Part shown: one piece after another, positions 21,718 through 48,611 of the stretch
Position numbering within the stretch: the stretch's first letter is position 1
Layout of the letters: each line of letters begins with the position of its first letter
Assembly (NCBI GenBank): GCA_024655865.1
Contig: JANLFM010000006.1
Coordinates: forward strand, 16,183-80,182
Length of the DNA stretch: 64,000 bases
Reading direction: 5' to 3'
DNA from: Caldisericota bacterium
Lineage (GTDB): Bacteria; Caldisericota; JANLFM01
The notes under the pieces: model-generated
Seen by the model: the letters and a program-made list of their open reading frames with translations, nothing else
Told to the model about the DNA's origin: nothing
The model's database searches: none
Made by a program: the position numbers and the translations under genes

Positions 21718-21720
21718 TCG

Positions 21721-22149: not shown

Positions 22150-22153
22150 TTCT

Positions 22154-23923: not shown

Positions 23924-23925
23924 CT

Positions 23926-33857: not shown

Positions 33858-34293
33858 TCTCTTCCTCTCTTTCTTGCACTTCTTTTATCAGGTTTTCCAG
33901 TATTTTAATTCCCTTTTCGGCAGAAGCCAGGGCTTCGGGTGAGAGACCCTCGCCAAAATCAAAATTGTACCCTCTTAGAGAAAGAAGAAAGGCTCGAGGT
34001 CGGCGATGATAGAGTTCCTCGAGCCAGAACAGGAATTGCTCCGGAAGGAGGTGGTGGGAAAGGAAGGAGGGCTTATTTTCCGGGAAAATTTCCCTCACCC
34101 GCACTTCCTCCCCTTCCAAAGCCGCATCTACGAATACGGCATAATCACAAAGCGCCAATTCCTCAAGGAGGTCTAAAGAAAGCTCCTGGAGGAACAACTT
34201 CTGGGCGGAAATTTCCGCTTTCTGGACGACATAATGGCCGATCCCGTCGTCCTGGCGATAAGGATTGCCGTAGGCGATTAAAAGGAGCCTAAT
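33838..34293 (-). CDS. Hydrogenase maturation endopeptidase (HoxW/FrhD-like), extended 5' of the track ORF
   Basis: The track ORF is 119 aa and starts at a TTG. The same frame is open 47 codons further upstream and encodes 'LLLIAYGNPYRQDDGIGHYVV', the conserved GxGNxxxxDDGxG metal-binding motif. No ATG, GTG or TTG lies in that stretch. The nearest plausible start is an ATT that overlaps the TAG stop of the large-subunit gene. Confidence 0.7.
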   Translation of the reverse strand: MRLLLIAYGNPYRQDDGIGHYVVQKAEISAQKLFLQELSLDLLEELALCDYAVFVDAALEGEEVRVREIFPENKPSFLSHHLLPEQFLFWLEELYHRRPRAFLLSLRGYNFDFGEGLSPEALASAEKGIKILENLIKEVQEREEENERPQN

Positions 34294-35713
34294 CTCTTTG
34301 AATCCTTTTTTCCAGTTTCCCCTCCTGGTTGTAGATTTCTACGATCAGGGGCATCTTCCCCACAGCATGAGTGGAGCAGGAGAGGCAGGGATCGTAACAG
34401 CGGATAGCTCCTTCCACGCGGTTGAGCATCCCTTCCTTGAGGTTTTTGCCGTCCACGAATCCCCTGGCCACGAGGTCCACAGCTTTGCTCATAGCCCAGT
34501 TGTTGTGCCCGGTAGCCACGATCAGGTTGGATTTCTTCATGGTCCCAGTTCCGTCCACCCAGTAATGGTGAATCAGGGTCCCCCGGGGTGCCTCGATCAC
34601 GCCGATCCCTTCCTCGTTTTTGGGGGTGCCGAAAGTGAAGACGTCCTGAGAAAGAATGTCGGGGTCTTTCAGGATCTCTATAGCACGCTCGGCGGCATAG
34701 AGGGTCTCAATCAAGCGCGCATAGTGGTAGTAAAGCGAGCTCTCCACGGGTTTTCCCCCGTTCACCTTTTTGAACTCCAGGAACTCCTTATGAGCCAGAG
34801 GAGTGGAGATGGAGTCCGCCACATTCAGGCGCCCCAGCGGTCCCACGCGGTAGAAACCCTCTTCCGGACCGAGCTCTTTGAAGAATGGGAACTTGAGGTA
34901 GGTCCAGTCTTCAACTTTCTCCCCGATGTATTTCAGGTAATCTTTGCCCTCGAACTCCCTGACGATCTTTCCCTCCTTATCCATGAAGCGCACAATGCCG
35001 TCATAGAGCTCTAAGGAACCGTCCTTTTTCACAAGCCCCATATACCCGGAGGGGAAGGAAGCAAATTGATTGCACTCCTCCTTGTGCTCGGAAATCCACT
35101 TTTTGGCGATCTCGATTCCCTCCTGAATGTACGGGATTCCCTCCTCCAGGAAAGAGAGCATCTCATCCCTGCGAGCTTCATCGAGGGCGGCGTTCACCCC
35201 TCCGGGAACGGCGAAGGTGGGGTGGATCCTTCTTCCCGCCGTAAGCTCAATGATTCTCTGCCCAAATTTGCGCAGCTTCACGGCCTTTAAGGCTATATCC
35301 GGGTTAGCCTGAATCAGCCCCACCACATTGCGCACGGCGGGGTCCGCATCCCACCCCAAAAGGAGGTCCGGGCCAGCCAGCTCAAAGAAGTGCATGGCGT
35401 GGGACTGGACAATCTGTCCCATGTGGACAAGCTCTCGCAGAAGTTTGGCCGGCCTGGGAATGTCCACGCCGATGACGGCGTCGCAGGCTTTGGCCGAGGC
35501 TAAATGGTGAGAGATGGGGCAGATGCCGCAGATGCGCTCGGTGATCATGGGCATCTCCGAGAAGGGCCTGCCCTCGGTGAATTTTTCATAACCGCGGTAC
35601 TGATCCACGTGGAAGTAGGTCTTTTCCACCTTTCCCTGATCGTCCAGGAAGATGGAAACCCTGGCGTGACCTTCAATTCTGGTAACTGGATTTATCGTAA
35701 TTTTTTCTCCCAT
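34289..35713 (-). CDS. Group-3 [NiFe] hydrogenase large subunit (HoxH/MvhA-like)
   Basis: N-terminal RICGICPISHHLA (L1) and C-terminal DPCLSCSTH (L2). A 24-aa tail after the His is the protease substrate. Confidence 0.9.
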   Translation of the reverse strand: MGEKITINPVTRIEGHARVSIFLDDQGKVEKTYFHVDQYRGYEKFTEGRPFSEMPMITERICGICPISHHLASAKACDAVIGVDIPRPAKLLRELVHMGQIVQSHAMHFFELAGPDLLLGWDADPAVRNVVGLIQANPDIALKAVKLRKFGQRIIELTAGRRIHPTFAVPGGVNAALDEARRDEMLSFLEEGIPYIQEGIEIAKKWISEHKEECNQFASFPSGYMGLVKKDGSLELYDGIVRFMDKEGKIVREFEGKDYLKYIGEKVEDWTYLKFPFFKELGPEEGFYRVGPLGRLNVADSISTPLAHKEFLEFKKVNGGKPVESSLYYHYARLIETLYAAERAIEILKDPDILSQDVFTFGTPKNEEGIGVIEAPRGTLIHHYWVDGTGTMKKSNLIVATGHNNWAMSKAVDLVARGFVDGKNLKEGMLNRVEGAIRCYDPCLSCSTHAVGKMPLIVEIYNQEGKLEKRIQRD

Positions 35714-35721
35714 AGTTCCTC

Positions 35722-36264
35722 CTAATCGTACTTCAGAAGCTCTTCTTTGAGCTCTGGGGTTTTCCCCTCCAGGATATCCTTGAGCACTTTATAGATAGCG
35801 TCCGCCGAGGGAGGGCAACCGGGAATGTAGAAGTCCACCTTTACCACTTCGTTCAGGGCCATGCACTTCTTGAGGTGTTTGCCAATTCCCGGACCCTGGG
35901 GGATCTTTCCCTCCACCGTGCTCTCAGTGTTTACATATCCTCTTTTTAAAAGCTCCTCGATGGGAATGTAGTTTCTCATGGTGTTGATCCCGCCGAAGAC
36001 CGCACAGTCCCCTAAAGCAACCAGGATCTTGCAGCGCTCGCGGAAGAGTTTCGCTACCTCCTCGTGGTGGTCGGTGGCCACTGCTCCCTCGAGCACCCCG
36101 ATATCCGTTCCGAAAGCGGGGACCTTAAGGTCGGTTATAGGTGTGGCGGTGATCACCAACCCCTCATTGATCAGCTCCACTAATCGCTCATCCATATCTA
36201 AGAGGGACATGTGGCAACCCGCACACCCCTCTAACCAGTCGCTCGCTAAGGTTATCTTCTTCAT
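35722..36264 (-). CDS. Group-3 [NiFe] hydrogenase small subunit (HoxY-like), proximal cluster only
   Basis: 180 aa carrying the GCAGC, GDCA and GCPP cysteine motifs. Confidence 0.85.
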   Translation of the reverse strand: MKKITLASDWLEGCAGCHMSLLDMDERLVELINEGLVITATPITDLKVPAFGTDIGVLEGAVATDHHEEVAKLFRERCKILVALGDCAVFGGINTMRNYIPIEELLKRGYVNTESTVEGKIPQGPGIGKHLKKCMALNEVVKVDFYIPGCPPSADAIYKVLKDILEGKTPELKEELLKYD

Positions 36265-36286: not shown

Positions 36287-37939
36287 TTAAATTTTTAGAA
36301 GCCGAGAGGAGATCTCTTCCACGGTCAAGACACCCTCGGCAGGGGTAACTACTCTCTGGCGCACAACTTTTTTACCCTCTAAGGTGATAAAGGTTCCCTC
36401 ATCCTCCAGATACCAGGTAATGGGGATTAACAGGTCGGCTACGGATTTGAGTTCCGGGGTTTCAAAGGGAGTAAAGGCAACGATAAAATCCCCTGGGGAA
36501 CGGGCGGAGGAAATGTTTTCCCCGACATAAATTTTCACTTTTTCCTGGGGTACTTTATGTTCGATCCCCAACTCCTTAAGGGCCATAGTGTTAGCCTCGT
36601 AGGGTAAAAAGAGATATTTGAAGCCGGATTCGGTCTCTAATCTCTCACTGATCCCCTCGGGGAGGGAAGAGTAAACGGCAACAACCTTTTCCCCTTTTCT
36701 GGCCTCTCCCAGAGCGGTATCAATGTCTTTATATTCGTAAGAGAAATCCGTAATTCCAGAGAGGCTACCCGCTTCCACAGCAATCAGCCTGGCGTTCTGG
36801 GGGACGACCCTGCGCTTGATCATGGAGCCCACGACCCCGTAGCGCTCGTTCAAATCCACGCCCACTACGAGGTAGGTATCTGCATCCTCCAGGTCCTTTA
36901 AAGTGGCCGTTGATGGGATGGGAGGATTAACCTCGTTCAGAGCGAAAACCCTGTCTCCCAAAGCCGACTTAAAGGCTTGAAGGAGCTCCAGTGGCAGGCT
37001 CCCCTCCAAAAATACCGTTGCCGCTCCCTTTTTCTCGCTGATCACTTTGAAAGCCATCTCGGGGGAAATCTGGGTCCAGATTCCTCCTTCCTTTAACTTA
37101 GGAGCGTTGAGGCGGGGCCGGTCTTCATAAAGGGGAAGGTAGCGTCCGTTCTTGCACAACACTCCCTGGTTAATCGGTGAATCCCAATCCCCGTAAACCT
37201 TCAAAATGAAGTTCGCCCGCCTGTAAACCTCGATGCCGCAACCCACGGGGCAGCGATCGCAATTCGTCTTGATGACCTCCGCTTGCTCTTTCCTTCCCAG
37301 GTAGGAAGCCCTTTTATCCACCAGCGCTCCGGTGGGACAGACCTGGACACACAGTCCACAGGAAACGCAGGAAGACTGAGCAAACTGGTTATTCAGATCA
37401 ATGTTGATCAGGCTCTGGTAACCCCGGTTCTTTACTTCCAGCACGAAATGTCCCCCAAGTTCAGCGCAAGCCCGAGCGCAACGGCGGCAGAGCACGCAGC
37501 GGTTCTGATCTAGAAGGATGTACGGGTGAGAGACATCTACAGGATACTTATCCTCATAGGGAGGGAATTCAAAATGATCCAGACCGAATTTATATCCCAG
37601 GTCCTGGAGCTCGCAGTTTCCGCTGGACTCGCAGTACATGCAGTAGTGGTTGCGCTCCCCGAAAAGGAGCTGGAGTACCGTCATCCTCACTTCCTGGATT
37701 TCCGGAGTGGAGGTCTTTACTTCCATCCCGTCCGTAACATAGGTGGCGCAAGCCGGCTTCAAGGCTCCAGGTCCAGCTTCCACCACACACATGCGGCAGG
37801 CTCCATAGGGAAGTAACTTTTCGTGGTAACAAAGGGTGGGAATTTCAATACCCGCTTCCTTCGCCGCTTCCAGTATGGTCTTACCTTCTTCTACTTCAAT
37901 TTCTTTTCCGTCTATTTTCAGTCTCACTTTTCCCATCAT
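36287..37939 (-). CDS. NuoG/HoxU-like FeS subunit with a truncated molybdopterin-type domain
   Basis: 2Fe-2S motif (CYHEKLLPYGACRMC). His-ligated cluster (HYCMYCESSGNC). Two 4Fe-4S motifs (CVLCRRCARAC, CVSCGLCVQVCP). An MopB-type N-terminal cluster (CDRCPVGCGIE) follows. Confidence 0.8.
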   Translation of the reverse strand: MMGKVRLKIDGKEIEVEEGKTILEAAKEAGIEIPTLCYHEKLLPYGACRMCVVEAGPGALKPACATYVTDGMEVKTSTPEIQEVRMTVLQLLFGERNHYCMYCESSGNCELQDLGYKFGLDHFEFPPYEDKYPVDVSHPYILLDQNRCVLCRRCARACAELGGHFVLEVKNRGYQSLINIDLNNQFAQSSCVSCGLCVQVCPTGALVDKRASYLGRKEQAEVIKTNCDRCPVGCGIEVYRRANFILKVYGDWDSPINQGVLCKNGRYLPLYEDRPRLNAPKLKEGGIWTQISPEMAFKVISEKKGAATVFLEGSLPLELLQAFKSALGDRVFALNEVNPPIPSTATLKDLEDADTYLVVGVDLNERYGVVGSMIKRRVVPQNARLIAVEAGSLSGITDFSYEYKDIDTALGEARKGEKVVAVYSSLPEGISERLETESGFKYLFLPYEANTMALKELGIEHKVPQEKVKIYVGENISSARSPGDFIVAFTPFETPELKSVADLLIPITWYLEDEGTFITLEGKKVVRQRVVTPAEGVLTVEEISSRLLKI

Positions 37940-37951
37940 TTACCTCCTGAA

Positions 37952-39526
37952 TTATTGAACAAGGGGAAGGAATTCTTCCCGGAAGTTTTCCAAAGCAGAT
38001 TTCACAGGCATGATCAGAGATTGCCCCAGAGGACATAGTGAGGAGTACCACAAGGCTTCTGACAGCTTGACCATTGTATTCAGATCCTCCGCTTTCCCTT
38101 TTCTCTCCAGAAGGTGTCCGGAAATGCGGTATAACTCTCGCGTCCCGGAGCGACAAGGAGAGCACTGTCCACAGGACTCGTGACGGAAGAAATAGAGTAC
38201 TGAGTGCAACATTTTTGGGATGGAGGCTTCTTGACTCATCACCAAAATAGCGCCCGACCCGAGGACGGCTTTGTACTGCTTCAAGTTATCGAAATCCATG
38301 CGCACATTGAGGAGGGATTCCGGGAGGAAAACCCCTGCTGCCCCACCCACTAAGGCTGCTTTGAACTTTTTCCCTCCTTTAATGCCCCCTCCGTAGCCAA
38401 AAATAATTTCATAAAGCGTAGTTCCCATCTCAACTTCTATCAGGCCAGGAAAGTTCACGTCGCCTAAAATGGTGTACACCTTCGTTCCGGGACAGGACTC
38501 CGTACCCATAGTGCGGAACCAATCCGCTCCTTTTCTGATAATTGCGGGAATATTCGCTAAGGTCTCCACGTTGTTGATCACGGTGGGACTGCCAAAAAGG
38601 CCTACTACTGTGGGATAAGGGGGTTTAATGCGGGGGTTGCCCCTTTTGCCCTCCAGGGATTCCATGAGCGCGGTTTCCTCTCCGCAGACATAGGCGCCGG
38701 CCCCTTCTTTGATTTCCAGATTAAAGGAGAATCCGCTGCCCAAAATGTCTTCTCCTAAGAGCCCATATTTTCGGGCATCCTCGATGGCCTTGTGCATCCT
38801 GTGCAGGGAAAGAGCATACTCCCCTCTGATGTAGATATATCCTTTCCTGGCACCCACGGCGTAGCCCGCGATGATCAATCCTTCAATCAGTTTATGGGGG
38901 TCACCCTCCAGAATCAGCCTGTCCTTGAAGGTCCCGGGCTCCCCTTCGTCAGCGTTGCAGATGATGAATTTTTCCATAGCCGAGGCCTTGCGCGCTCCCT
39001 CCCATTTAATTCCTGTGGGGAATCCGGCTCCTCCTCTTCCTCTCAGGCCGGATTTCTTGACCTCGGCAATGACCTCATCCGGGGTCAGGGAGAGGGCTTT
39101 TTCCAGAGCAGTGTAACCATCTCGCGCCAGGTACTCCTCGATTTTCTCAGGATCGATTATACCTGAGTTCTCAAGGACCACCCTCTTTTGCTCCCTCATG
39201 GGGCCTATCAGGTCCCTTCTTACTGCCCTAACAACCTCTTCTTTTATGATCAGGTCCTGAACCGGACGGCCCTTGAGGAAATGCTCCTCCACGATCCGAG
39301 GACAGTCCTCAGGTTTCACCTTCCCGTAATATATGCGCTCTGGATAGACTGCCAGAACCACGCCCAGCCCGGTAACTCCCAGGGTTCCAGTTTCCAGAAC
39401 TTTAATTTCCTCCAAGAGGCCTCTCCGGGAAATCTCCTCTTTCAGTCTTTTTAAAACCTCCCAGGCTCCTGAGGCCACGCTTTCGATATCAATCGATACC
39501 AGGACATGACTGCGAGCTAATCTCAT
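37952..39526 (-). CDS. NuoF/HoxF-like NADH-binding flavoprotein subunit
   Basis: FMN motif (GRGGAGFPTG). N3 cluster (ESCGQCSPCRSG). The N-terminal thioredoxin-like domain lacks the usual 2Fe-2S cysteines. Confidence 0.85.
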   Translation of the reverse strand: MRLARSHVLVSIDIESVASGAWEVLKRLKEEISRRGLLEEIKVLETGTLGVTGLGVVLAVYPERIYYGKVKPEDCPRIVEEHFLKGRPVQDLIIKEEVVRAVRRDLIGPMREQKRVVLENSGIIDPEKIEEYLARDGYTALEKALSLTPDEVIAEVKKSGLRGRGGAGFPTGIKWEGARKASAMEKFIICNADEGEPGTFKDRLILEGDPHKLIEGLIIAGYAVGARKGYIYIRGEYALSLHRMHKAIEDARKYGLLGEDILGSGFSFNLEIKEGAGAYVCGEETALMESLEGKRGNPRIKPPYPTVVGLFGSPTVINNVETLANIPAIIRKGADWFRTMGTESCPGTKVYTILGDVNFPGLIEVEMGTTLYEIIFGYGGGIKGGKKFKAALVGGAAGVFLPESLLNVRMDFDNLKQYKAVLGSGAILVMSQEASIPKMLHSVLYFFRHESCGQCSPCRSGTRELYRISGHLLERKGKAEDLNTMVKLSEALWYSSLCPLGQSLIMPVKSALENFREEFLPLVQ

Positions 39527-39981
39527 TTTCCCCTCCGCAAATCATTAAGGACAGAACGAACTTTCTCCGGTGTCAGGTTTCCGTAGACCTCCTCGTTGAC
39601 CATCATCGCCGGAGCTACACCGCAGACCCCGAGGCAGGAGGATAATTCCAGGGTGAAAAGGCCATCCGGGGTGGTCTCTCCCACTTTTATGCCCAAAAAG
39701 TTGCTCACCGTATCAATAATTGACTCGGCGCCCACCAGATGGCAGGGAGGGGATTCACAGATGCGGATGATGTATTTCCCCCGGGGCTTCAGGCTGAACA
39801 TGGAATAGAAAGTGGCCACACTGCTCACAAAGCTCAAGGGAAGGGAAAGGTAATTTGCCGCCAGTTTCAAATCCTCTTCCTCGAGATAGTTCTGAGGGTT
39901 GCTCCTCTGAAGAGCATGGAGCAGGGATAAGAGGTTTTCCTTTCTGGGCTCAAACCTTTTCAGGATTCTCACCTTTTCCAT
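39523..39981 (-). CDS. NuoE/HoxE-like [2Fe-2S] subunit
   Basis: Motifs CESPPCH and CLGVCGVAP. Confidence 0.8.
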   Translation of the reverse strand: MEKVRILKRFEPRKENLLSLLHALQRSNPQNYLEEEDLKLAANYLSLPLSFVSSVATFYSMFSLKPRGKYIIRICESPPCHLVGAESIIDTVSNFLGIKVGETTPDGLFTLELSSCLGVCGVAPAMMVNEEVYGNLTPEKVRSVLNDLRRGK

Positions 39982-40038: not shown

Positions 40039-43000
40039 TCAACCTCCTAAAGGAATTCTCACTTTTTCCTTTTCCAATTTTTCGCTCACGACCTCCTTGC
40101 CCCTATCGCACTTCAGGCACCTCTTCGATTCCTCAAGGGCCTCCTGAAGAAGAATCCCCTTATTCACTTCGATGAATGATTTAATTCTCTCCTCAACCAT
40201 TTCCAGAGCTGGAGTTTTCCTGGGGATCACCTTCAGGTATTCCTCCTCGTTGAAAGAGGTCTCTACCACTTCCCTCCTGGGGAAGGGGAATTTTCCTTCA
40301 TACCCGAAGTGTCTGTCAATGGAGAGGGCGGCCTTCCTTCCCTGGCCCACAGCTTCCACAACGGTCGCGGGGCCCAGCACAGCGTCACCGCCTGCGAAGA
40401 CTCCGGTTAAACTCGTCTCCAGGGTATCCTTGTCAACCTTTATCGTTCCGTCCCTATTGGTCTCCAATTCCTCAGCAAATCCTGAAAGCTCTGGCCTCTG
40501 CCCGAGGCACAGGAGCACGAAATCCGCCTCTATTTCGAATTCCGTTCCCTCTTTGGGCACCGGTCTCCTTCTTCCGCTCTTATCGAACCCCTGGAATTCC
40601 ATCTGCACGCACCTTATCTTTTCCACTCTTGTTGATCCGGTGAATTCTATGGGGTTCGTCAGGAAGTAGAATTTGATGCCTTCTTCGATGGCTTCCTCCA
40701 CTTCCGTAGCCTGCGCGGGCATTTCCTCCCTGGACCTTCTGTAGATTACGGAAACTTCGCTGGCCTTAAGCCTTAAGGCAGTTCGGGCCGCATCCATGGC
40801 GGTTGAGCCACCACCGACCACTGCCACCCTCTTCCCCTTGAGGTCCATTTTCTTCCCCAGGTTCACTTCGCGCAGGAAATCAATGCCGCCTGTAATCCCT
40901 TCCAGCTCCTCGCCTTTGACGTTTAACTTTTCTGAGCGGTGGGCCCCTATGCTGATAAAGACAGCGTCAAAGCCCATCTCCTTCAGCTCCTGAAGGCTCG
41001 AAACCGGAGAATTAAGTCTCAGCTCCACCCCTGATTCCACAATCCTGGCGATCTCCTCATTCAGGACATCCTTGGGGAGTCGGTAGTCCGGGATGCCCAC
41101 GCGCATCATTCCCCCGGGCACAGGAAGGGACTCGAACACTACGGGCCTGTAGCCCAGCCTGGTAAGGAAGTAAGCGCAGGAAAGTCCCGCAGGGCCAGCA
41201 CCGACAATGGCCACTTTTTCCTTCCTAAGTTCTAAGGGAGGGTTGAATTGCACGTCGTTTTCTCTGGCCCAATCCGCAAAGAGCCTCTTTACCTCCCTGA
41301 TAGCGATGGGTTCATCGAATTTGCCCCTCTCGCACGGTCTTTCACAGAATGCGGGACAGACCCTGGCGCACACGCTGGGGAAAGGATTGTTCTCCATGTG
41401 CACCAGGAAAGCCTCTTTGAGTCTTCCCTCCGTCATATGGGCGAGGTAGCGAGGGACATCCACACCCGCGGGACAGGCATTGGTGCAGGGGGCATAGAAA
41501 AGCGAAGCGCACACTCCGGCGCGACACTTCTTGTAAAGAACGTGTTCCAGAAACTCTTCAGGGAAATATTTTAAACCGGTAAGGACCGGGTTGGGGGCTG
41601 TCTGCCCCAGAGCGCACATAGAGGAGCTCTTTATCTGTTTTCCCAGTTTTTCCAAAAGAGTTAGGTCCTCCAGCGTGCCCTGCCCGTTCGTGATTCTGTC
41701 GAGAATGCTGTACATTTGCTTCAGGCCCACCCTGCAGGGGGTGCACTGGCCACAGGATTCCGACATCGTGAACTCCACGAAGAACTTGGCCATGTTCACC
41801 ATACAGTTGTCCTCGTCGAGGACGATCATTCCTGCAGAGCCGATTATGGAACCCGTCTTCTCTATTTCCTTATAATCCACAGGCAGGTTCAAAAATTCGC
41901 TCGTGATGTAACCGCCTGAAGGGCCACCCATCTGGATGGCCTTGAATCTTTTCCCTTTGGGGATCCCGCCGCCAATATCGAAGATTACCTCCCCCAGAGT
42001 CAATCCGAAGGGAACCTCAATCAAACCGGTATTGTTCACCTTTCCTGAGAGCGCGAAGAGTTTAGTGCCCTTGCTGTTCTCCGTGCCCATGGAGGCGAAC
42101 CACTCTCCCCCGTTTAAAATGATGTGCCTGATGTTGGCCAGAGTTTCCACGTTGTTGACCAGCGTGGGTTTTCCCCAAACACCCTTCTGGGCAGGATATG
42201 GAGGCTTGAAGCGCGGCGTGCCTCTTTTCCCCTCAAGGGAATTTAAAAGAGCGGTTTCCTCTCCAGCGACGAATGCTCCGGCTCCCATTCTCAGCTCTAT
42301 ATCAAAATCAAACCCTGTCTCTAAGATGTTTTTCCCCAGTAAACCGTATTTCCTTGCCTGTTCCAGGGCAATTTCCAGCCTCTTGATGGCCAGAGGATAC
42401 TCGGCGCGGATGTAGATATATCCGTGGTGGGCGCCTATGGTGTAGCCGGCAATAATCATCCCTTCGATTACCGCATGAGGATCGCCTTCGAGGATTGCCC
42501 TGTCTTTGAAAGCCCCAGGGTCTCCTTCATCGGCATTGCAGACGACGTATTTTTCATCGCCCTTCGCTTCCCGTGTGAATTTCCATTTCAGGCCCGTGGG
42601 AAAACCGGCGCCTCCTCTTCCTACTAATTTCGACTTGATCAGTTCCTCGATCACCTTTTCAGGCGTCATCTCTGACATGACTTTGGCTAAGGCCTCGTAC
42701 CCTCCGTAGGCGATATACTCCTCGATGTTTTCCGGGTCGATTCTGCCGCAGTTTTTAAGGACAACCTTCTCTTGCTTTTCGAAGAAGGGGATCTTCTTTT
42801 TTTCCTCGACGATCTTCGCGGCCTCAGGGGCAGTCCATAAAAGCCTTTTTACGGGTCTTCCCTTGAGGAAGTGCTCTTCAACTATTTGGGGAATGTCCTC
42901 GTCCTTGAGCTTTACGTAAAAGGAACCCTCGGGGTAGACAATCATCACTGGGCCCAGCTGACAGGGACCCATGCACCCGGTTCCCACTATGTTGACTTCC

Positions 43001-43113
43001 TCTTGAAGTTGCCTCCTCTCTAATTCCTCCTCCAGCTTCTTCTTGAACTCCAGGCTGTGCGAGGAGAGGCAGTTTGCTCCCGTACAGATGAGAACGTCCA
43101 GTCTTTTCCTCAT
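40039..43113 (-). CDS. NuoF-like flavoprotein fused to a 2x[4Fe-4S] ferredoxin and a GltD/SudA-like NAD(P)H FAD oxidoreductase (1024 aa)
   Basis: N-terminal thioredoxin-like 2Fe-2S (CTGANC..GCMGPC). FMN motif (GRGGAGFPTG) and N3 cluster (ESCGQCTPCRVG). Two Cys4 clusters follow. Then come Rossmann motifs (VAIVGAGPAGLSCAY and VAVVGGGSTAMDAA). Confidence 0.8.
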   Translation of the reverse strand: MRKRLDVLICTGANCLSSHSLEFKKKLEEELERRQLQEEVNIVGTGCMGPCQLGPVMIVYPEGSFYVKLKDEDIPQIVEEHFLKGRPVKRLLWTAPEAAKIVEEKKKIPFFEKQEKVVLKNCGRIDPENIEEYIAYGGYEALAKVMSEMTPEKVIEELIKSKLVGRGGAGFPTGLKWKFTREAKGDEKYVVCNADEGDPGAFKDRAILEGDPHAVIEGMIIAGYTIGAHHGYIYIRAEYPLAIKRLEIALEQARKYGLLGKNILETGFDFDIELRMGAGAFVAGEETALLNSLEGKRGTPRFKPPYPAQKGVWGKPTLVNNVETLANIRHIILNGGEWFASMGTENSKGTKLFALSGKVNNTGLIEVPFGLTLGEVIFDIGGGIPKGKRFKAIQMGGPSGGYITSEFLNLPVDYKEIEKTGSIIGSAGMIVLDEDNCMVNMAKFFVEFTMSESCGQCTPCRVGLKQMYSILDRITNGQGTLEDLTLLEKLGKQIKSSSMCALGQTAPNPVLTGLKYFPEEFLEHVLYKKCRAGVCASLFYAPCTNACPAGVDVPRYLAHMTEGRLKEAFLVHMENNPFPSVCARVCPAFCERPCERGKFDEPIAIREVKRLFADWARENDVQFNPPLELRKEKVAIVGAGPAGLSCAYFLTRLGYRPVVFESLPVPGGMMRVGIPDYRLPKDVLNEEIARIVESGVELRLNSPVSSLQELKEMGFDAVFISIGAHRSEKLNVKGEELEGITGGIDFLREVNLGKKMDLKGKRVAVVGGGSTAMDAARTALRLKASEVSVIYRRSREEMPAQATEVEEAIEEGIKFYFLTNPIEFTGSTRVEKIRCVQMEFQGFDKSGRRRPVPKEGTEFEIEADFVLLCLGQRPELSGFAEELETNRDGTIKVDKDTLETSLTGVFAGGDAVLGPATVVEAVGQGRKAALSIDRHFGYEGKFPFPRREVVETSFNEEEYLKVIPRKTPALEMVEERIKSFIEVNKGILLQEALEESKRCLKCDRGKEVVSEKLEKEKVRIPLGG

Positions 43114-43124
43114 TATTGGGCTCC

Positions 43125-43487
43125 TTATTCTTCAACCTGAATTACGTACTCGGAGACCACCACCCCATTCACTATGTGTTCTGCCACTATCCTTTTCGCC
43201 ACTTCCGGCGTAACCATTCCATAGACTATCCCGGGTTTTCCAGACTCCTCCACGATCACCACCGGTTCCTGGGAAGCCAGCCCTTTTTCTCCGGTCTGCG
43301 TCACGAGGACGTCTGTGAGATTTCTATTTTCAATTTCCGACAAAAAGGCCCTTAAGGTCTCCCTTGCTCCGGCCGCAATGCCGCTGGTTCCCATTCCAAT
43401 GATGATTTTTATTCTTGCTTTTCCCTCTCTCAGGCTCAGTTCCTGTTGAACCCTTTCTCTTATTTTTCTCAGCTCTTCCAGCTTCAT
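43125..43487 (-). CDS. HndB-like thioredoxin-fold protein, cysteine-free
   Basis: 120 aa with the fold of a NuoF N-terminal domain (..IIIGMGTSGIAAG..) and no Cys. It sits between the NuoE-like and NuoF-like genes as HndB does in Hnd operons. Confidence 0.55.
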   Translation of the reverse strand: MKLEELRKIRERVQQELSLREGKARIKIIIGMGTSGIAAGARETLRAFLSEIENRNLTDVLVTQTGEKGLASQEPVVIVEESGKPGIVYGMVTPEVAKRIVAEHIVNGVVVSEYVIQVEE

Positions 43488-43552
43488 TCTCCATCCTCCG
43501 TATTTTTATTTTTTATCTTGTAAGTTTTGAGGGATCAGATCAAAGGTAAGGC

Positions 43553-44086
43553 TCAGCGATCGAGCTCCCTTTCCCGGATCCCCTTTATGACATTGACCAC
43601 CTTGAGGGGAGTCAACCTGCCGTAAATCTCCTCGTTAACCATCATGGTTGGGGCTAAACCACAGGCACCAAAACAGCGAGCAGTAGACAGGGTGAAGAGC
43701 CTGTCCTCCGTGGTCTCCCCTACATCGATCTTGAGCTCCTTACAGACGGCCTTCAAAACGTCAGCCGCTCCCTTTACGTGACAGGCAGTCCCCAGGCAGA
43801 GGTTTATGACGTACTTCCCTACGGGCTGTGTGCGGAAAAAATGGTAAAACGTGATCACTCCCAGGATCTGGGATGGGGGAACATGCAGCTCTCTGGAAAT
43901 GAAATATTGCACTTCCCTGGGAAGGTATCCAAAAAGTGACTGGGCTTTATAGAGAACGTTGAGCAAGGCGCCTTTAGAGTTTTTGTGTTCCGCTATGAAT
44001 TCCCTCAGTTCCTGGTACTGCTCGTTCTCAGGAATAACAATCTGCTCGTTCATTGAAACCTCCTGTTCAGTTGAGGGCTTTTTCAA
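43553..44086 (-). CDS. NuoE/HndA-like [2Fe-2S] subunit
   Basis: Motifs CLGTACHVKG and CFGACGLAP. Confidence 0.8.
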   Translation of the reverse strand: MKKPSTEQEVSMNEQIVIPENEQYQELREFIAEHKNSKGALLNVLYKAQSLFGYLPREVQYFISRELHVPPSQILGVITFYHFFRTQPVGKYVINLCLGTACHVKGAADVLKAVCKELKIDVGETTEDRLFTLSTARCFGACGLAPTMMVNEEIYGRLTPLKVVNVIKGIRERELDR

Positions 44087-44165: not shown

Positions 44166-44726
44166 TTAATCTTGTTCAGGAAAGATCCTCTCCAGCTCCT
44201 TTACTTTCTCATTTATGAATTCTCTCAAAAACTTAATCACCGAGGGATGAGAAAGGGGCACATCATTTAAAATCGCTTTTATTTCTCGAGTGTCCAGAAC
44301 CAGTTCCCTTCCGTTTTTTAAATAGCGGAAAAGGATGTCCGCTCTTTCTGAAGCGTAAACCAGGGCCAGTATGGTCCCGCGCAAATCCCCCAGCGGGGGA
44401 AGGTCAATATGGCTGCGCGGAAATTGTGCTTTTATCCTCGTGCCTTTCCCGGCCTGGGATTTGACCTTTAAATCACCTCCGGTGGAGAGGGCCGTCTGCT
44501 TCAAAAGGGGAATTCCCAGGCCCACTTTCTTTCCGGACTTGGTGGTGAAAAAGGGATCTTCCACCATTTTCAGAGTCTCTTCATCCATACCCCGGCCGTT
44601 ATCTTCCACCGTGATCTCCAGAAGATCCTCCTTGATTCGTTCTCTGATCTCTACGGAGATCAAGCTGGCTCCTGCGCTAATCGAGTTCTGCACAATATCC
44701 AGAACGTGGAGAAGGAGTTCATCCAT
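44166..44726 (-). CDS. Stand-alone HATPase_c (histidine-kinase-like ATPase) protein
   Basis: N box (ITVEDNGRGMD) and G box (GLGIPL) with no HisKA or sensor domain. Part of the putative sensory [FeFe]-hydrogenase module. Confidence 0.6.
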   Translation of the reverse strand: MDELLLHVLDIVQNSISAGASLISVEIRERIKEDLLEITVEDNGRGMDEETLKMVEDPFFTTKSGKKVGLGIPLLKQTALSTGGDLKVKSQAGKGTRIKAQFPRSHIDLPPLGDLRGTILALVYASERADILFRYLKNGRELVLDTREIKAILNDVPLSHPSVIKFLREFINEKVKELERIFPEQD

Positions 44727-45510
44727 TTCCTAAGGGTTCCCTCCCGATTTCTAAGCGGATTATCCCTCTTCCCCCTTTCCCCTCCAGAGCGTACCTCAAT
44801 TCTTCAAGGGTGGGGCTTTCCATCTGGAGTACCGTTACCGCCCTGCCGATTTCCTCGGGATAGTGGGCATCGGAAAAGGATACCAGAGGATACCCCAAGA
44901 GGTCGCGCGCTGAGGGATTCTTTTTCAAAAAGGCGTGGGAGACCTCAAGGGCAGGAAAGTGCAGTTCAGGAGGGATAAATCCCAACTGCCCGGCAAGGCT
45001 GAAGTGAAAGGAGTCCACATGTGCGGGAATAACCAGTCCTCCCATTTTTGTAACAAGGCGCGAGAGGCCCTCCAAAGAAATCGCCACGGAGTTCAGAAGA
45101 AGCTTCTCCTCAAAATAGATCACGTTTTCCTCCTCGTCCACGGCCACCTGGTCTCCAAAGTGCTGAGGGTCGTTCTTCACCTGCGGGAGACGGTCGTAAA
45201 TTTCCTTTCCAAAAAGTTCAAAGGAGGAGGGGTCATCAAAATAAACGAGGAGGTGCGCCTCCTCCTGAGTTTGCACTTCTATTCCATAAAAGAAGGGCAG
45301 GCTCCTCTTCCGCGCCATTTTTCCCAGCGTTACGCTGTTTAAAGTTGCGTTGTGGTCTGTGATGGCCACTAAATTTATCCCCATTCCCACTACACTTTCC
45401 AGGATGCGCGAGGGGGACATTTTCAGGCTTCCGCAGGGGGAAAGCGTGGAGTGGATATGAAGGTCAGCGCGGAATTTTTCCACCTTGAAGCAACTGGAAA
45501 ATTTTTCCAC
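44719..45510 (-). CDS. PHP-domain phosphoesterase
   Basis: 'ADLHIHSTLSPCGS' matches the N-terminal PHP metal-binding motif. Confidence 0.7.
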   Translation of the reverse strand: MEKFSSCFKVEKFRADLHIHSTLSPCGSLKMSPSRILESVVGMGINLVAITDHNATLNSVTLGKMARKRSLPFFYGIEVQTQEEAHLLVYFDDPSSFELFGKEIYDRLPQVKNDPQHFGDQVAVDEEENVIYFEEKLLLNSVAISLEGLSRLVTKMGGLVIPAHVDSFHFSLAGQLGFIPPELHFPALEVSHAFLKKNPSARDLLGYPLVSFSDAHYPEEIGRAVTVLQMESPTLEELRYALEGKGGRGIIRLEIGREPLGNG

Positions 45511-45811
45511 TCAGGGTAAAGGCATCATCCGGACTTCCTAAAAGCCAGATCCCCTCTTCCTCAGCTTTCTTCATCACATCCTCTTCCGGAAGTAGCTCCT
45601 GAGCGATGATTATTGCGGGAATTTCCTTAAGCGCTGCTACGGCCACGATGTTCACGTGCCTTTGCACGGTAATCCACAGGGCCCCAGAAGGAGCGGAACC
45701 AATCACCAGGGAAAGGAGGTCCCCAGTATATCCCTTATCTATGGAAGCTTCTTTCCCGGTGGCATACACCTTTAAATTTAAATGGTCGATTATTTCTTTA
45801 ATACTCACCAT
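45464..45811 (-). CDS. DRTGG-domain protein
   Basis: 'YTGDLLS' lies in a roughly 110-aa stand-alone DRTGG-like fold. Confidence 0.55.
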   Translation of the reverse strand: MVSIKEIIDHLNLKVYATGKEASIDKGYTGDLLSLVIGSAPSGALWITVQRHVNIVAVAALKEIPAIIIAQELLPEEDVMKKAEEEGIWLLGSPDDAFTLSGKIFQLLQGGKIPR

Positions 45812-45863: not shown

Positions 45864-47075
45864 TTAGAGGAAGATGCAGTCCTCAAGAGAAGCTTCGCCC
45901 TTGGCAACGTCCTCTGCCAGTGCCCTGCAAGTGGGAGCACCACATGACCCGCAGTCTATTTTGGGAAGTTTCTCGTAGAACTTATCAATCATCTTCAGGA
46001 GCTTGGCGGCGGCTTCCATATTTTCGGAGAGAAAGTACTGCGGTCTTGGTTGGATGGGCATAGTTAAATAGAGAAAATCCGCCATATCCTCCCTGGAAAG
46101 AGGGGAAATCGCATTTTCCCTCTTTCGCTCTTCCTGCTCCAGACGGTAAAGGTTCAAAAAGGAGTCCCTCTCAGGGAGGAGGATGCCCCCCACGCACCCA
46201 TTGGGACAGGAGCGGCCTTCAATCAGGTCAAGGGCGGGCACCTTTTCCATCTCGAGCTCTTTTAAAAATCTGACCACGTTGGTGATCCCGTCAATCGCCA
46301 GCACCCTTAAGGGAGAGAGGAATTCCTTTTCCCCGCCAATTCTGCCAATGGCTACCCCGCTCGGACCCGAAAGGTGTACTTTCCCCGAGGTAGTCTCATT
46401 GACCCTGAGGATTTCCCGATAGAGGATATTCGCTGCGATCACACCATCGTAAGGGGATTTCTCGATCCCCTGGGGGTTCCTGATGGCAGTAATTTTGGCG
46501 GGGCAGGGTGCAAGATAGAAAAGCCCCGAATTTTTTCCTAACTTACGCCTGACTGTGGCCCCCAAAATGTCCCTGGGAGTATTCAAGGGGGAAAGATGTG
46601 AGAGCAGATCAGGAAACCTGACCTGCATCAGCCTGATCACGGCCGGGCAGGCGACGGAAATCAAAGGTTTCTTCACATTCCCCTTTGTCAGGATGCGGCG
46701 CGTTTCCTCTAAATAGGCTTCCTCGCCTATCCCCTCCTCGTAGACCTCCTGGAACCCCAGGGCAAAGATTCGGCCCATTACTTCGGATGTGCTTAATCCC
46801 AGGAAATCCAGGGAGAGAAAGGCGGGAGGAATCACCAGCACTCTGTATTCGTAGTGAGAGAGAACCGAAAGGTCATCGGTTAAAACCTCGTTCGCTCCCC
46901 AGGGGCAGAAGCGCACGCAATCGCCGCAATCAATGCACTTTAAATCCTTGATTTGAGCTAAACGGTTTCTCACCCTGATGGCCTCTGTGGGACAATTGCG
47001 CAGGCAATGGGTACAGCCCTTGCACACGTCCTCCTTTATGCGCAGTGAATGGAAATAAAGGTTAAACGCTGGCAT
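45864..47075 (-). CDS. [FeFe]-hydrogenase-like protein, putative sensory HydS-type (2x[4Fe-4S] + H-domain)
   Basis: N-terminus has CKGCTHCLRNCP and CIDCGDCVRFCP. The H-cluster motifs are variant. L1 is 'SVACPAV', where the first Cys of TSCCP is replaced by Ala. L2 is 'APCPAK' (PCxxK). L3 is 'EGRSCPNGCVGG'. An extra C-terminal CGSCGAPTC motif is present. Confidence 0.75.
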   Translation of the reverse strand: MPAFNLYFHSLRIKEDVCKGCTHCLRNCPTEAIRVRNRLAQIKDLKCIDCGDCVRFCPWGANEVLTDDLSVLSHYEYRVLVIPPAFLSLDFLGLSTSEVMGRIFALGFQEVYEEGIGEEAYLEETRRILTKGNVKKPLISVACPAVIRLMQVRFPDLLSHLSPLNTPRDILGATVRRKLGKNSGLFYLAPCPAKITAIRNPQGIEKSPYDGVIAANILYREILRVNETTSGKVHLSGPSGVAIGRIGGEKEFLSPLRVLAIDGITNVVRFLKELEMEKVPALDLIEGRSCPNGCVGGILLPERDSFLNLYRLEQEERKRENAISPLSREDMADFLYLTMPIQPRPQYFLSENMEAAAKLLKMIDKFYEKLPKIDCGSCGAPTCRALAEDVAKGEASLEDCIFL

Positions 47076-47502
47076 TGGGAATATCTATTTCAAAAATCAC
47101 TTTCGTGCCCTTTCCGGGGTGGCTCTCAATAAGCAATCGGTCGGCATTTTTCTTGATATTGGGTAAGCCCATCCCTGATCCAAAACCCATTTCCCGAATC
47201 TCCGGAGGAGCAGTGGAGTATCCCTCCTTCATGGCTAACTCCACGTCCTCGATCCCTGGTCCGCGGTCCGTGGCGGTAACCCTGATCATTTTCGGATAGA
47301 CTTCAAGTAAGAGCTCTCCTTTTTCCGTATACACGATGATGTTCATTTCCGCTTCGTATGAGGCGATGGCTGTCCTTTTTATAACCTGGGGATTGATCCC
47401 CATGCGCTTTAAAGCCTCCTTTATGTCTGAAGAAGCCTCACCCCCGTGCTCAAAGTCTCGCCCCTGAATCTGGTATGTGTGGCTGTAAAGCAGGTCGTTC
47501 AA
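47062..47502 (-). CDS. RsbW-like HATPase_c serine kinase / anti-sigma-type ATPase
   Basis: 146 aa with N box (ATDRGPGIED) and G box (GFGSGMGL). Confidence 0.65.
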   Translation of the reverse strand: MNDLLYSHTYQIQGRDFEHGGEASSDIKEALKRMGINPQVIKRTAIASYEAEMNIIVYTEKGELLLEVYPKMIRVTATDRGPGIEDVELAMKEGYSTAPPEIREMGFGSGMGLPNIKKNADRLLIESHPGKGTKVIFEIDIPNASV

Positions 47503-47870
47503 GGTCCCCTGGTTATTCGGGCCCCTTCGATTCCAGCTTTATAGAGCAGCCCGCAGGTAACGAAAACGATGAGCTCCGTGGATACTACGATTACTCCTTT
47601 TTCCTCACCCAGGGTTATCGTTTCCCAGGGGACGCGTTTCCCTCGGGCCACGATTACCATGGGAATGTCCATGAGCACTGCTGTGCGCACAATTTGAGGG
47701 TTAGTTATTCCTGTTATCAGGACCACGTCCCTGTTCTCTACTTCCACCAGGGCCAGTACGTCGCTTAATAAGTCAGCGGCGAATCCCCTTTTAATTTCCA
47801 CTTCATCCAGCAGGGATTCTCCGGATAGGACTTTGCCCTTAATTAAGCTCACAATTTCTCGCGCTCTCAT
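47499..47870 (-). CDS. DRTGG-domain protein (second copy)
   Basis: Paralog of 45464..45811 (..VVLITGITN..). Confidence 0.55.
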   Translation of the reverse strand: MRAREIVSLIKGKVLSGESLLDEVEIKRGFAADLLSDVLALVEVENRDVVLITGITNPQIVRTAVLMDIPMVIVARGKRVPWETITLGEEKGVIVVSTELIVFVTCGLLYKAGIEGARITRGP

Positions 47871-47887
47871 CTTCCCTATTCTACACC

Positions 47888-48611
47888 AAAAATAGGGACA
47901 GTCCCTATTTTTTTCTGGGCCTTCCCCTCAGCTTCGGAAGCGCCTCCTGGCCGAGCCTTTTTATAATTTCCTCCGCCCACCCTCTGCTTCCGAAAGGGAC
48001 CTGCCTGTTGGCACAGGCTCTCAATTTTTCCAGCTCTCCGGGGCTTACTGCTTCCATGACATAGGTGCCCCAGTCTCGGGGAAGAGGGACCGGGCTGGCA
48101 TCAAGAAGGGGGATCTTCACGTTTCCCCCTTCCCTTTCCCGGAAAGAAGACCACTTCCACTCGCCAGGAAGAGAGGCCAATCCCGCCCTCAAGGGATTGG
48201 CCTCCACATAGCGCATAACCATGAGAAAATGCTCGTCCTCCTGAACGAGAAAGCATCGGAAGCGGTCCTGCCAGATGTGGCCGCTCGTCCCATGCTCCTT
48301 GTGATAGCGGCGAACATGGCTGGTGCAAAGCCAGTGCATTCCCCGGCTCAGGTCTTTACCCTCTGGAGAAGAGAGGACCAGATGAAAGTGGTTGGGCATC
48401 AGGCAATAAGAAAAAATTGACCAGAAATACTTTTCCTTCGTTTCCTTAAGCAGCTGGAGGAAGGAGAGATAGTCCTTTTCCTTGTAGAAAACGGTCTGCC
48501 TGCCATTCCCCCGGTTGAGCACGTGGTAAATTGCTCCCCCGATGACATTTCGAGCTGTCCGTGGCATCCTCAGTTTCCTCCTTCAAAAATAGGGACAGTC
48601 CCTATTTTTTT
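47888..48611. mobile_element. REP-RAYT-REP unit: IS200-like REP-associated tyrosine transposase flanked by palindromic REP hairpins
   Basis: The palindrome AAAAATAGGGACAGTCCCTATTTTT occurs at 47888..47914 and 48585..48611 in the same orientation. Each is followed by TCTGGGCC. Confidence 0.7.
47905..48567 (-). CDS. REP-associated tyrosine transposase (RAYT, IS200/IS605 TnpA-like)
   Basis: HUH motif (MPNHFHLV). 'YHVLNRG' near the N-terminus. A downstream catalytic-Tyr region (RYVEANPLRAGL). The TAG stop lies inside REP-A. Confidence 0.8.
   Translation of the reverse strand: MPRTARNVIGGAIYHVLNRGNGRQTVFYKEKDYLSFLQLLKETKEKYFWSIFSYCLMPNHFHLVLSSPEGKDLSRGMHWLCTSHVRRYHKEHGTSGHIWQDRFRCFLVQEDEHFLMVMRYVEANPLRAGLASLPGEWKWSSFREREGGNVKIPLLDASPVPLPRDWGTYVMEAVSPGELEKLRACANRQVPFGSRGWAEEIIKRLGQEALPKLRGRPRKK

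Follow-up and report, generated by a model that had tools for sequence, protein, structure and literature searches.

A putative sensory Group D (M2e) [FeFe] hydrogenase gene, hydS, beside a predicted electron-bifurcating [NiFe] hydrogenase operon in a Caldisericota bacterium

Introduction

The [FeFe] hydrogenases of Group D, also named M2e, are defined by a C-terminal Cx2Cx4Cx16C motif and are without the PAS domain that marks Group C, the group of TmHydS (Land et al. 2020, PMC8163306). Cys299 and the proton path of the Group A enzymes are unconserved in M2e, and the exchange of M353 for a hydroxyl residue (Ser/Thr) has been termed a 'well-conserved property of M2e' (PMC8163306). In our study, a gene of this type, hydS, is described from a stretch of 64,000 nucleotides of a Caldisericota bacterium (GenBank assembly GCA_024655865.1, contig JANLFM010000006.1, positions 16,183 to 80,182 of the forward strand), the whole of which is called the window. 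The gene lies at window positions 45864-47075 on the minus strand, next to the genes of a [NiFe] hydrogenase.

The model enzyme of Group D is TamHydS from Thermoanaerobacter mathranii, for which biochemical work has been available since 2020 (PMC8163306, PMC10407848, Schumann et al. 2026 PMC13104023). It binds a normal H-cluster and turns over H2 slowly and in both directions, at about 0.1 umol H2/mg/min, which is 10^4-10^5-fold below the catalytic enzymes. Tolerance of CO and O2 is a further trait ascribed to Group D. Its Km(H2) of about 0.1 mM is lower than that of catalytic enzymes, and H2 was found to change its secondary structure (PMC8163306, PMC10407848, PMC13104023). The position of C299 is mostly occupied by Ala in the putative sensory enzymes, being A131 in TmHydS and A137 in TamHydS, and a Group-D-specific alternative proton path runs over E252-E289-S249-D265 (TamHydS numbering), of which S249 is 'moderately conserved' (Cabotaje et al. 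2023, PMC10407848). The HydABC-type operons of T. maritima and A. mobile include a 'HisK' gene whose product stands outside the holoenzyme (Feng et al. 2022, Schut et al. 2022; PMC9304861, PMC8880783).

The best overall explanation of the present locus is probably a Group D H2-sensor module which tunes the adjacent bifurcating hydrogenase. HydS is no new kind of protein but belongs, as a fairly distant member, to a class that is known and has been characterised biochemically; what had drawn attention to it in an earlier note on this DNA, made from the letters alone, are the very features by which the published Group D / M2e class is defined. That note had missed that the architecture already carries this name and that the adjacent enzyme operon is [NiFe] and not [FeFe].

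Gene and domain organization of HydS

The open reading frame (ORF) of hydS and the parts of its product, with lengths and residues in amino acids (aa), are the following.

45864-47075, minus strand: hydS, Group D / M2e putative sensory [FeFe] hydrogenase, HydS-like, 403 aa; ORF with ATG start and Pfam matches to Fer4, Fe_hyd_lg_C and FeS.
46893-47042, minus strand: N-terminal F-domain with two [4Fe-4S] motifs (C18, C21, C24, C28, C47, C50, C53, C57), from the Pfam match at aa 12-61 and the Cys positions.
46638-46658, minus strand: L1 motif SVACPAV, aa 140-146; Ala142 corresponds to CpI Cys299 and Cys143 to CpI Cys300 in the alignments.
46494-46511, minus strand: L2 motif APCPAK, aa 189-194; Cys191 corresponds to C355 and Lys194 to K358, and Ala189 is at the M353 position (alignment).
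46185-46220, minus strand: L3 motif EGRSCPNGCVGG, aa 286-297; Glu286 corresponds to TamHydS E289, Cys290 to C499 and Cys294 to C503, and Arg288 is at the M497 position (alignment).
45870-45968, minus strand: C-terminal [4Fe-4S] domain of the RnfB / CFeSP-type PF04060, C375-x2-C378-x4-C383-x16-C400 (Pfam E=1.2e-14).

The reading frame and start codon are as the earlier note had given them, and the three H-cluster motifs which it named were all recovered. Its 'CxxCxxxxC tail' was right in that the tail is present, but the motif is really the four-Cys one listed above. Pfam placed the Fer4_10/Fer4_7 4Fe-4S dicluster at aa 12-61, Fe_hyd_lg_C at aa 96-297 (E=7.3e-20) and the PF04060 'FeS' domain at aa 370-402, with scores far above chance. 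No PAS domain was found in HydS by Pfam at E<=0.01, as the note had also said, and the protein ends at residue 403. The eight N-terminal [4Fe-4S] cysteines are all invariant in the alignment A1, and the PDB chains 4DJD_C and 9ERI_B match HydS at aa 366-402.

The note had further claimed that the Cys299-equivalent position carries Ala, a change described for sensory enzymes. Both parts are borne out, the second by A131 and A137 of the enzymes cited above, which the literature calls putative sensory. In HMMER alignments with the solved HydA chains 7QV7_D, 8A6T_A and 7P5H_A, SVACP of HydS falls on SCCP. When CpI was aligned by MAFFT with 119 members of the family, the correspondences were A142=C299, C143=C300, C191=C355, K194=K358, C290=C499 and C294=C503; the CpI sequence used reproduces all canonical CpI residue numbers. 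In the family the column holds Ala in 81, Ser in 35 and another residue in 3 of the 119 members. A sequencing error at Ala142 was considered and rejected, since its codon, GCC at 46650-46652, is two base changes away from a Cys codon and Ala is the majority residue of the column. In the 55% identical relative P0006 (L004 6661-7941), which has the same [NiFe] context, Ile is present at this position (STICPAV).

The AlphaFold2 model of HydS, built on an 18-sequence alignment, has a predicted local distance difference test score (pLDDT) of 91.3 and a predicted template modelling score (pTM) of 0.90. When it was used for a fold search of the PDB, the top matches were all [FeFe] hydrogenases, with template modelling (TM) scores of 0.6-0.72. 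HydS ends three residues after its last Cys (...CIFL*, 45864-45875), and the 99% (L089) and 87% (L001) identical relatives add four residues, QKKG. The Caldisericota-type HydS clade is without the helix, about 28 residues long or longer, that TamHydS-like proteins carry at the C-terminus. In TamHydS-like proteins this helix has been modelled along the axis of the predicted TamHydS homodimer.

The ratio of non-synonymous to synonymous substitution rates (dN/dS) of hydS is 0.061 against the 87% relative and 0.068 against the 99% relative (13 synonymous and 3 non-synonymous differences), values which indicate strong purifying selection (dN/dS about 0.06). This bears on the reading of hydS as a decaying, functionless relic of an [FeFe] HydABC operon in which catalytic HydA was replaced by [NiFe] subunits. 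In its favour, the operon skeleton (sensor module - HydC - HisK - HydD - HydB) is as in [FeFe] operons, with HydA replaced. The frame of hydS is nevertheless intact, its dN/dS of 0.06 holds over a synonymous divergence above 1, and the cofactor ligands are all conserved in the 55-99% relatives; a relic is most improbable, and the pseudogene reading is effectively refuted by the dN/dS value.

Assignment to Group D

HydS almost certainly belongs to the Group D (M2e) [FeFe] hydrogenases, the PAS-less 'HydS' type, a placement made from homologue architecture and pairwise similarity. More than 2700 homologues were found at E<=1e-10, and the best 120 all have Fer4 + Fe_hyd_lg_C + FeS without PAS. 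A scan of species-representative genomes gave at least 594 Group D loci. A protein identical to HydS carries the NCBI label 'Caldiserica bacterium' as part of a metagenome-assembled genome (MAG), and the window matches the JGI contig Ga0417229_000213.

TamHydS numbering was applied through the homologue P0050; P0050 fits 18 of 18 published TamHydS residue numbers, and HydS is 39% identical to it (E=2e-102). The residues of the Group D proton path are kept in HydS as E249, E286 and D262 (TamHydS E252, E289 and D265), and so are the conserved residues which PMC13104023 describes between the domains and beside the clusters, as R34, R36, E388, D389, D374 and D399. As compared to CpI, the Group A proton path has E279 changed to Thr, E282 to Ile and R286 falling at a gap, and the S319 position alone is kept (Ser). 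Arg288 of HydS sits at the M497 position, which is variable.

Membership in the catalytic Group A was rejected, as L1 has SVACP instead of TSCCP and only the S319 position is kept out of E279/S319/E282/R286. Membership in Group C (M2f, TmHydS type) was rejected on the missing C-terminal PAS domain.

A variant of the L2 motif is found in the Caldisericia homologues P0012, P0014, P0020, P0022 and P0027 (45-49% identical), which have ATYPCK and not xPCxxK. The H-cluster Cys is there moved by two positions and Tyr stands in the canonical Cys column, as it does in 15 of the 119 family members.

The signalling module around hydS

The earlier note had placed the signalling partners of hydS in separate small genes, two DRTGG, two HATPase and one PHP. 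Pfam found the same set, with the second DRTGG gene below the DRTGG cut-off and above that of Hpr_kinase_N.

47499-47870, minus strand: DRTGG-domain protein a, 123 aa (Pfam DRTGG, 25.3 bits); its stop overlaps the next gene start by 4 nt.
47062-47502, minus strand: small GHKL ATPase a, 146 aa, SpoIIAB/RsbW-like (Pfam HATPase_c and HATPase_c_2); overlaps the hydS start by 14 nt.
45464-45811, minus strand: DRTGG / HPr-kinase-N-like protein b, 115 aa (Hpr_kinase_N 29.5 bits, above cut-off; DRTGG 23.8 bits, below cut-off).
44719-45510, minus strand: PHP-family metal-dependent phosphoesterase, longest ORF 263 aa (Pfam PHP and PHP_C).
44166-44726, minus strand: GHKL ATPase b ('HisK'), 186 aa, a histidine-kinase catalytic domain without DHp/His domain (Pfam HATPase_c, 63.7 bits).

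The true start of the PHP gene is probably about 30 codons downstream of the longest-ORF start, because the protein of the 87% relative (L001) is called at 233 aa.

The wider setting was examined in 80 genome loci, out of the at least 594, which were classed by tblastn with the window proteins; these are mostly from Bacillota, together with WOR-3, Muiribacteriota and Spirochaetes, and include no Caldisericota genome. The module companions were found at high frequency (DRTGG-a in 76, the small ATPase a in 79, DRTGG-b in 71 and PHP in 71 of the 80), and companions on the enzyme side were ATPase b in 57, NuoE in 58 and NuoF in 55. By this gene neighbourhood, the DRTGG, small ATPase and PHP genes are normal, conserved companions of Group D genes. 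DRTGG, HATPase and DRTGG genes also flank the P0050 gene in the TamHydS-numbered locus L003. Literature searches on DRTGG or PHP together with hydrogenase gave nothing relevant, and the module is seemingly undescribed under those domain names in the literature searched.

The two HATPases were found to differ in kind. The PDB matches of ATPase b are confined to histidine-kinase catalytic domains, whereas the sole PDB matches of ATPase a are to the anti-sigma F factor SpoIIAB, a serine kinase of the same length, and are weak (E about 4e-4). ATPase b is on the strand of the enzyme genes in 44 of 44 loci. Judged by sequence matches and gene order, the two also belong to different modules, ATPase a to the sensor module and ATPase b to the genes of the enzyme, with which it travels. 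ATPase a is like the SpoIIAB/RsbW partner-switching kinases in its length and in the HATPase_c_2 match. The SpoIIAB/RsbW modules, however, consist further of a STAS antagonist, a PP2C phosphatase and a sigma factor; the hydS cluster is without these and has DRTGG and PHP genes in their place. The resemblance is one of analogy and not of membership.

Upstream of the sensor module, at a distance of 35 bp, lies an IS200-like Y1 transposase gene (47905-48567, minus strand; Pfam Y1_Tnp E=2e-17). A Y1 transposase is at the equivalent place in the 87% relative (L001 2817-3479, L002 1457-2119), and the gene is thus a stable resident that was not newly inserted. The sensor module of the 55% relative is directly preceded by dxr and not by a transposase.

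A fusion gene was observed in Neomoorella mulderi (L007 20797-21374; 748 aa, the gene runs past the locus edge), at a distance of about 9 kb from that organism's Group D gene. Its product joins Fer4 - Fe_hyd_lg_C - PF04060 FeS to a sigma-54 AAA+ activator and HTH_8, which shows that the Fer4/H-domain/FeS type does serve as a regulatory input, here in direct connection with a transcription factor.

The adjacent [NiFe] bifurcating hydrogenase operon

The module is followed on the same strand by redox-enzyme genes, the hydS module being directly upstream of them.

43553-44086, minus strand: HydC/NuoE-like [2Fe-2S] subunit 1 (Pfam 2Fe-2S_thioredx E=2e-50; NCBIfam HoxE/NuoE).
43125-43487, minus strand: HydD-like small thioredoxin-like ferredoxin, 120 aa (NCBIfam fdxn_Clost E=1.7e-10; position conserved in L001-L007).
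40039-43113, minus strand: HydB/NuoF fused to a GltD/NfnA-like NAD(P)H flavoprotein, 1024 aa (Pfam; PDB matches).
39523-39981, minus strand: HydC/NuoE-like subunit 2 (NCBIfam NuoE E=1.5e-40).
37952-39526, minus strand: HydB/NuoF-like subunit 2, 524 aa (NCBIfam nuoF_fam E=8e-157).
36287-37939, minus strand: HydA'-type NuoG-like Fe-S subunit without H-cluster domain, 550 aa (best PDB match 7T2R_A 'NiFe hydrogenase subunit A', E=1.7e-78, 268 bits).
35722-36264, minus strand: [NiFe] hydrogenase small subunit, 180 aa (NCBIfam VhuG/FrhG-type; Pfam Oxidored_q6 in relatives).
34289-35713, minus strand: [NiFe] group-3 hydrogenase large subunit, 474 aa (best PDB match 7T2R_D, E=2.6e-175, 587 bits; HoxH Pfam in relatives).
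33838-34197, minus strand: [NiFe] maturation endopeptidase, listed as a 119-aa ORF from TTG (TIGR00072).

By sequence, this is an Acetomicrobium-type electron-bifurcating [NiFe] HydABCSL operon with a HydB-GltD (Nfn-like) module. One cluster holds the gene set of the Bfu type, which is an H-cluster-less HydA-like subunit, HydB, HydC and the small and large subunits of a group 3 [NiFe] hydrogenase; bifurcation is a prediction from it. [FeFe] hydrogenase models match the HydA'-type subunit at aa 5-210 alone. The N-terminal part of the HydB-GltD fusion best matches 7T2R_B (768 bits) and its C-terminal part NfnA of the Bfu-type transhydrogenase 9N5U (407 bits), which suggests an NADP(H)-linked Bfu variant with a fusion order unlike NfnABC. 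The same fusion is present in Neomoorella mulderi (L007, 13923-16958), in a classic operon that ends in [FeFe] HydA, and at the Caldisericia-type locus L006 (16062-19136).

Group D genes are otherwise associated with genes of histidine-kinase-like ATPases and with a Group A (bifurcating) [FeFe] hydrogenase; the window has the ATPase genes, and its adjacent hydrogenase is of the [NiFe] type. A hydrogenase was found adjacent to the Group D gene in 45 of the 80 comparison loci and is in all of them an [FeFe] HydA, with about 50% identity to the H-domain of CpI; a [NiFe] subunit was found next to the Group D gene by tblastn with the window proteins in none of the 80. In these 45 loci the hydrogenase is co-directional and downstream in 26 and divergent in 17. 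The occurrence of both arrangements is a pattern typical of a regulator and its target.

The [NiFe] layout of the window is shared by relatives with HydS 99% (L089), 88% (L090), 87% (L001/L002) and 55% (L004/L091) identical, and the metagenome scan gave three true close relatives alone. No description of a Group D sensor beside a [NiFe] enzyme was found in the literature searched. As far as checked, the pairing of Group D with [NiFe] bifurcating hydrogenase is undescribed and restricted to a small clade, and it is the sole unusual aspect of the locus.

Homologues of the [NiFe] large subunit with 72-75% identity are found at L103 (6596-11859, Dictyoglomaceae MAG) and L104 (1991-11861, Caldisericia MAG), where the operons are compact (HypA-HypB-HydA'-small subunit-large subunit-protease) and without NuoE/NuoF or sensor. 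At the Caldisericia loci L005 and L006, which have sensor and NuoE/NuoF, no catalytic subunit was found within the stretch covered. The arrangement in the window thus seems, by this comparison of gene orders, to be a merger of two loci that are still separate in Caldisericia and Dictyoglomaceae.

Two successive HydC/HydB pairs are present (37952-39981 and 40039-44086, minus strand) but only one HydA'-S-L arm, a duplication which is conserved in L004, L005 and L006; the second NuoF (524 aa) is without the C-terminal extension of the first. One flavoprotein pair is therefore left without an obvious catalytic partner, and this is one of the grounds on which HydS could be taken as a slow second H2-activating or electron-input subunit, docked on NuoE/NuoF (BfuBC) in a mixed [FeFe]/[NiFe] system. 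TamHydS is a genuine bidirectional H2 catalyst, merely slower; physical [FeFe]+[NiFe] hybrid complexes are known in archaea (PMC11216029); and no hydrogenase-like gene other than the sensor-type one stands beside NuoE/NuoF at L005 and L006. On the other hand, signalling-type genes stand between hydS and the enzyme genes, transcription is divergent from the enzyme genes in the 17 of 45 loci noted above, and HydS is without the Group A proton path and Cys299, its model enzyme reaching only the low turnover already given. Moreover, purified HydABC and NiFe-HydABCSL have no such subunit (PDB 7T2R, 7P5H, 8A6T; PMC8880783), and the unpartnered HydB already has a second substrate site, for NADP(H), through the GltD/NfnA-like fusion. 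A docked subunit of this sort is therefore quite unlikely, and the regulatory module is the reading followed below.

The maturation protease was at first sight truncated, and this was rejected. Its frame is open upstream to about 34290-34300 and holds there a conserved GNPYRQDDGIG motif (frame analysis; compared with L103-L105). The start is probably a codon other than ATG, GTG or TTG near 34290, which would overlap the large-subunit stop codon.

Many further [NiFe] hydrogenase genes lie elsewhere in the window (642-27957, minus strand). HypF, HypC, HypD and HypE lie at 1898-6426, and a 1178-aa PAS-GAF-HisKA kinase (6461-9997) adjoins HypF. At 18322-27957 there is a membrane-bound hydrogenase of group 4, which has Mrp-type antiporter subunits and a protease of its own, and an RnfC-like gene is at the left window edge.

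Proposed function of the module

A possible course of signalling can be outlined. Binding or oxidation of H2 at the H-cluster would alter the conformation of HydS, a change which the DRTGG proteins and the SpoIIAB-like ATPase, whose gene is translationally coupled to hydS, may read. The readout would most likely be a kinase switch in which PHP acts as the opposing phosphoesterase or phosphatase, and the switch may adjust how far the neighbouring bifurcating hydrogenase and its NAD(P)H module are expressed or active. The enzyme so controlled in this lineage would be [NiFe] HydABCSL with HydB-GltD and not [FeFe] HydABC; both a [NiFe] enzyme and the balance of NAD(P)H and ferredoxin would thereby be under a sensor of [FeFe] type. 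An H2-sensing or regulatory role of HydS is somewhat likely, while a phospho-switch as the mechanism is a tentative suggestion and rather doubtful.

Several points weigh against the sensor-module explanation. In vivo sensing has been shown for no Group D enzyme, and the role is termed 'putative' in the literature (PMC8163306, PMC10407848, PMC13104023). The C-terminal cluster of TamHydS is unreduced by H2 (PMC13104023), which removes one proposed signalling route. In the hydS cluster, Pfam/NCBIfam profile scans found no gene for a DNA-binding protein, a STAS partner or a PP2C phosphatase. The promoter and terminator sites predicted by a scan were no more numerous than in shuffled sequence, and co-transcription of the cluster is predicted from strand and spacing. 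Some residues of HydS also depart from those of its class. Ala189 is at the M353 position instead of the Ser/Thr usual in M2e (column S 65, T 38, A 16; n=119), and by these counts it is a minority variant still inside the range of the Group D family. Ile246 stands at the TamHydS S249 position, as in 33 of the 119 family members, and K35 and K58 near the N-terminal clusters of TamHydS are replaced in HydS by Leu39 and Asn62.

Lastly, HydE/F/G were not found in the window (Pfam, large ORFs), in the 9 kb past its left edge (HypD anchor) or in the Caldisericota-type loci. HydG and HydF of L105 gave no tblastn match in the window or in the Caldisericota-type loci, and the literature on hydrogenases of Caldiserica/Caldisericota is uninformative on maturases. 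HydG or HydF lies within 10 kb at only 3 of the 80 Group D loci (tblastn), however, and as the maturases are normally unlinked, their absence from about 73 kb of contig says nothing.

The same absence is the starting point for reading HydS as a protein without the [2Fe] subcluster, in an organism without HydEFG, which would then be an H-cluster-free Fe-S redox or CO/O2 sensor with four [4Fe-4S] sites. This would suit a window that has a full [NiFe] system (HypC/D/E/F, group 4 and group 3) and no catalytic [FeFe] enzyme, and the ATYPCK motif of several Caldisericia homologues and the Ile at C299 in one relative hint at a relaxed constraint on the [2Fe] pocket in the phylum. Against it, the four H-cluster cysteines, K358, E249, E286 and D262 are kept in HydS and in its 55-99% relatives under the low dN/dS; a proton path would be pointless without a [2Fe] site, and its conservation argues for one. 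With the rarity of maturase genes near Group D genes in addition, an H-cluster-free protein is improbable.

At L105 (1-5886, 7789-11858), [FeFe] HydA, a TM1266-like gene, HydG, Lyase_1 and HydF are directly upstream of a HydA'-small subunit-large subunit [NiFe] operon, whose large subunit is 67% identical to that of the window. [FeFe] maturases and a [NiFe] enzyme of this type can thus be neighbours.

A more specific history is possible, with a probability slightly short of even: the Caldisericota-type lineage may have recruited an [FeFe]-family H2 sensor with its DRTGG/ATPase/PHP switch for a [NiFe] enzyme and HydB-GltD, and may keep HydEFG solely for sensing. An organism with HydS as its sole [FeFe]-family gene would either keep HydEFG just for the sensor or use HydS without the [2Fe] subcluster. 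The former, if true, would speak strongly for a function other than catalysis.

HydS adds a distant member, from another phylum than the model enzyme and 39% identical to it, to a class that is still credited with no more than a 'putative' role in physiology. If Group D proteins sense H2, the module follows the bifurcating NuoE/NuoF core, with a catalytic site of [FeFe] or [NiFe] type alike, and such a pattern narrows what the sensor regulates and why. If true, the locus would be a natural experiment in which a Group D protein serves the bifurcating flavoprotein core (BfuBC) rather than an H-cluster enzyme, and if the [FeFe] sensor governs the [NiFe] enzyme, the two would be the first cross-class pair of sensor and enzyme. 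The locus makes the question of Group D sensing and its targets somewhat more testable. Further, Ala189 and Arg288, which frame the di-iron site, are natural variants that can be used for active-site engineering of the kind done on TamHydS.

Comparison with known systems

TamHydS and HydS have the same architecture, 2x[4Fe-4S] - H-domain - Cx2Cx4Cx16C without PAS, and both have Ala at C299 and no Group A proton path. The residues E252, E289, D265, R30, R32, E392, D393, D378 and D403 (TamHydS numbering) are conserved between them. At 39% identity they differ at M353 (Ser in TamHydS, Ala in HydS), at M497 (Leu and Arg), at S249 (Ile in HydS) and at K35 and K58 (Leu and Asn in HydS). A C-terminal helix of roughly 28 residues is found in TamHydS-like proteins and is missing in HydS. 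The neighbour of TamHydS is [FeFe] HydABC, whereas that of HydS is [NiFe]-Bfu, and the hosts are a Firmicute and a Caldisericota-affiliated MAG, respectively.

TmHydS of Thermotoga maritima (Group C / M2f), compared by its description, is like HydS in the N-terminal 2x[4Fe-4S], the Ala at C299 (A131), the C-terminal four-Cys cluster and the position near a bifurcating hydrogenase operon. Group C has a C-terminal PAS domain, whereas HydS has none. E252 and D265 are unconserved in Group C (PMC10407848), whereas HydS has both.

The Group A [FeFe] hydrogenases (CpI and HydA of HydABC; 4XDC, 7P5H, 8A6T) share with HydS the H-domain fold (TM 0.6-0.7), the four H-cluster cysteines, K358 and the proximal 2x[4Fe-4S]. 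HydS, on the other hand, carries Ala for C299, Thr for E279, Ile for E282, Ala for M353 and Arg for M497, it has no equivalent of R286, and its PF04060 cluster domain replaces the small-subunit-like C-terminal region.

On the enzyme side, the closest described system is the [NiFe] HydABCSL of Acetomicrobium mobile (7T2R/7T30; PMC8880783, PMC9304861), whose chains in 7T2R are the best matches of the large subunit, HydA' and HydB of the window. Both operons have the non-enzyme genes 'HisK' and 'HydD' and a maturation protease. The window operon differs in its two HydC/HydB pairs, of which one HydB is fused to the GltD/NfnA-like domain. As to an [FeFe]-type sensor gene beside the A. mobile operon, the descriptions in PMC8880783 and PMC9304861 make no mention of one.

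Published pairings of [FeFe] and [NiFe] found in the literature searched are the archaeal group F/G catalytic fusions alone (PMC11216029). These hybrids of group F/G [FeFe] with group 3f/3g [NiFe] hydrogenases (Greening et al. 2024) are like the window in having an [FeFe]-family gene together with group 3 [NiFe], HydB, HydC and NuoG-like genes in one cluster. In the archaeal hybrids, however, a fusion joins the [FeFe] H-domain to the [NiFe] small subunit, and this H-domain has been proposed as a catalytic part of one complex, whereas HydS is a separate protein of the sensor type which lies in a signalling module.

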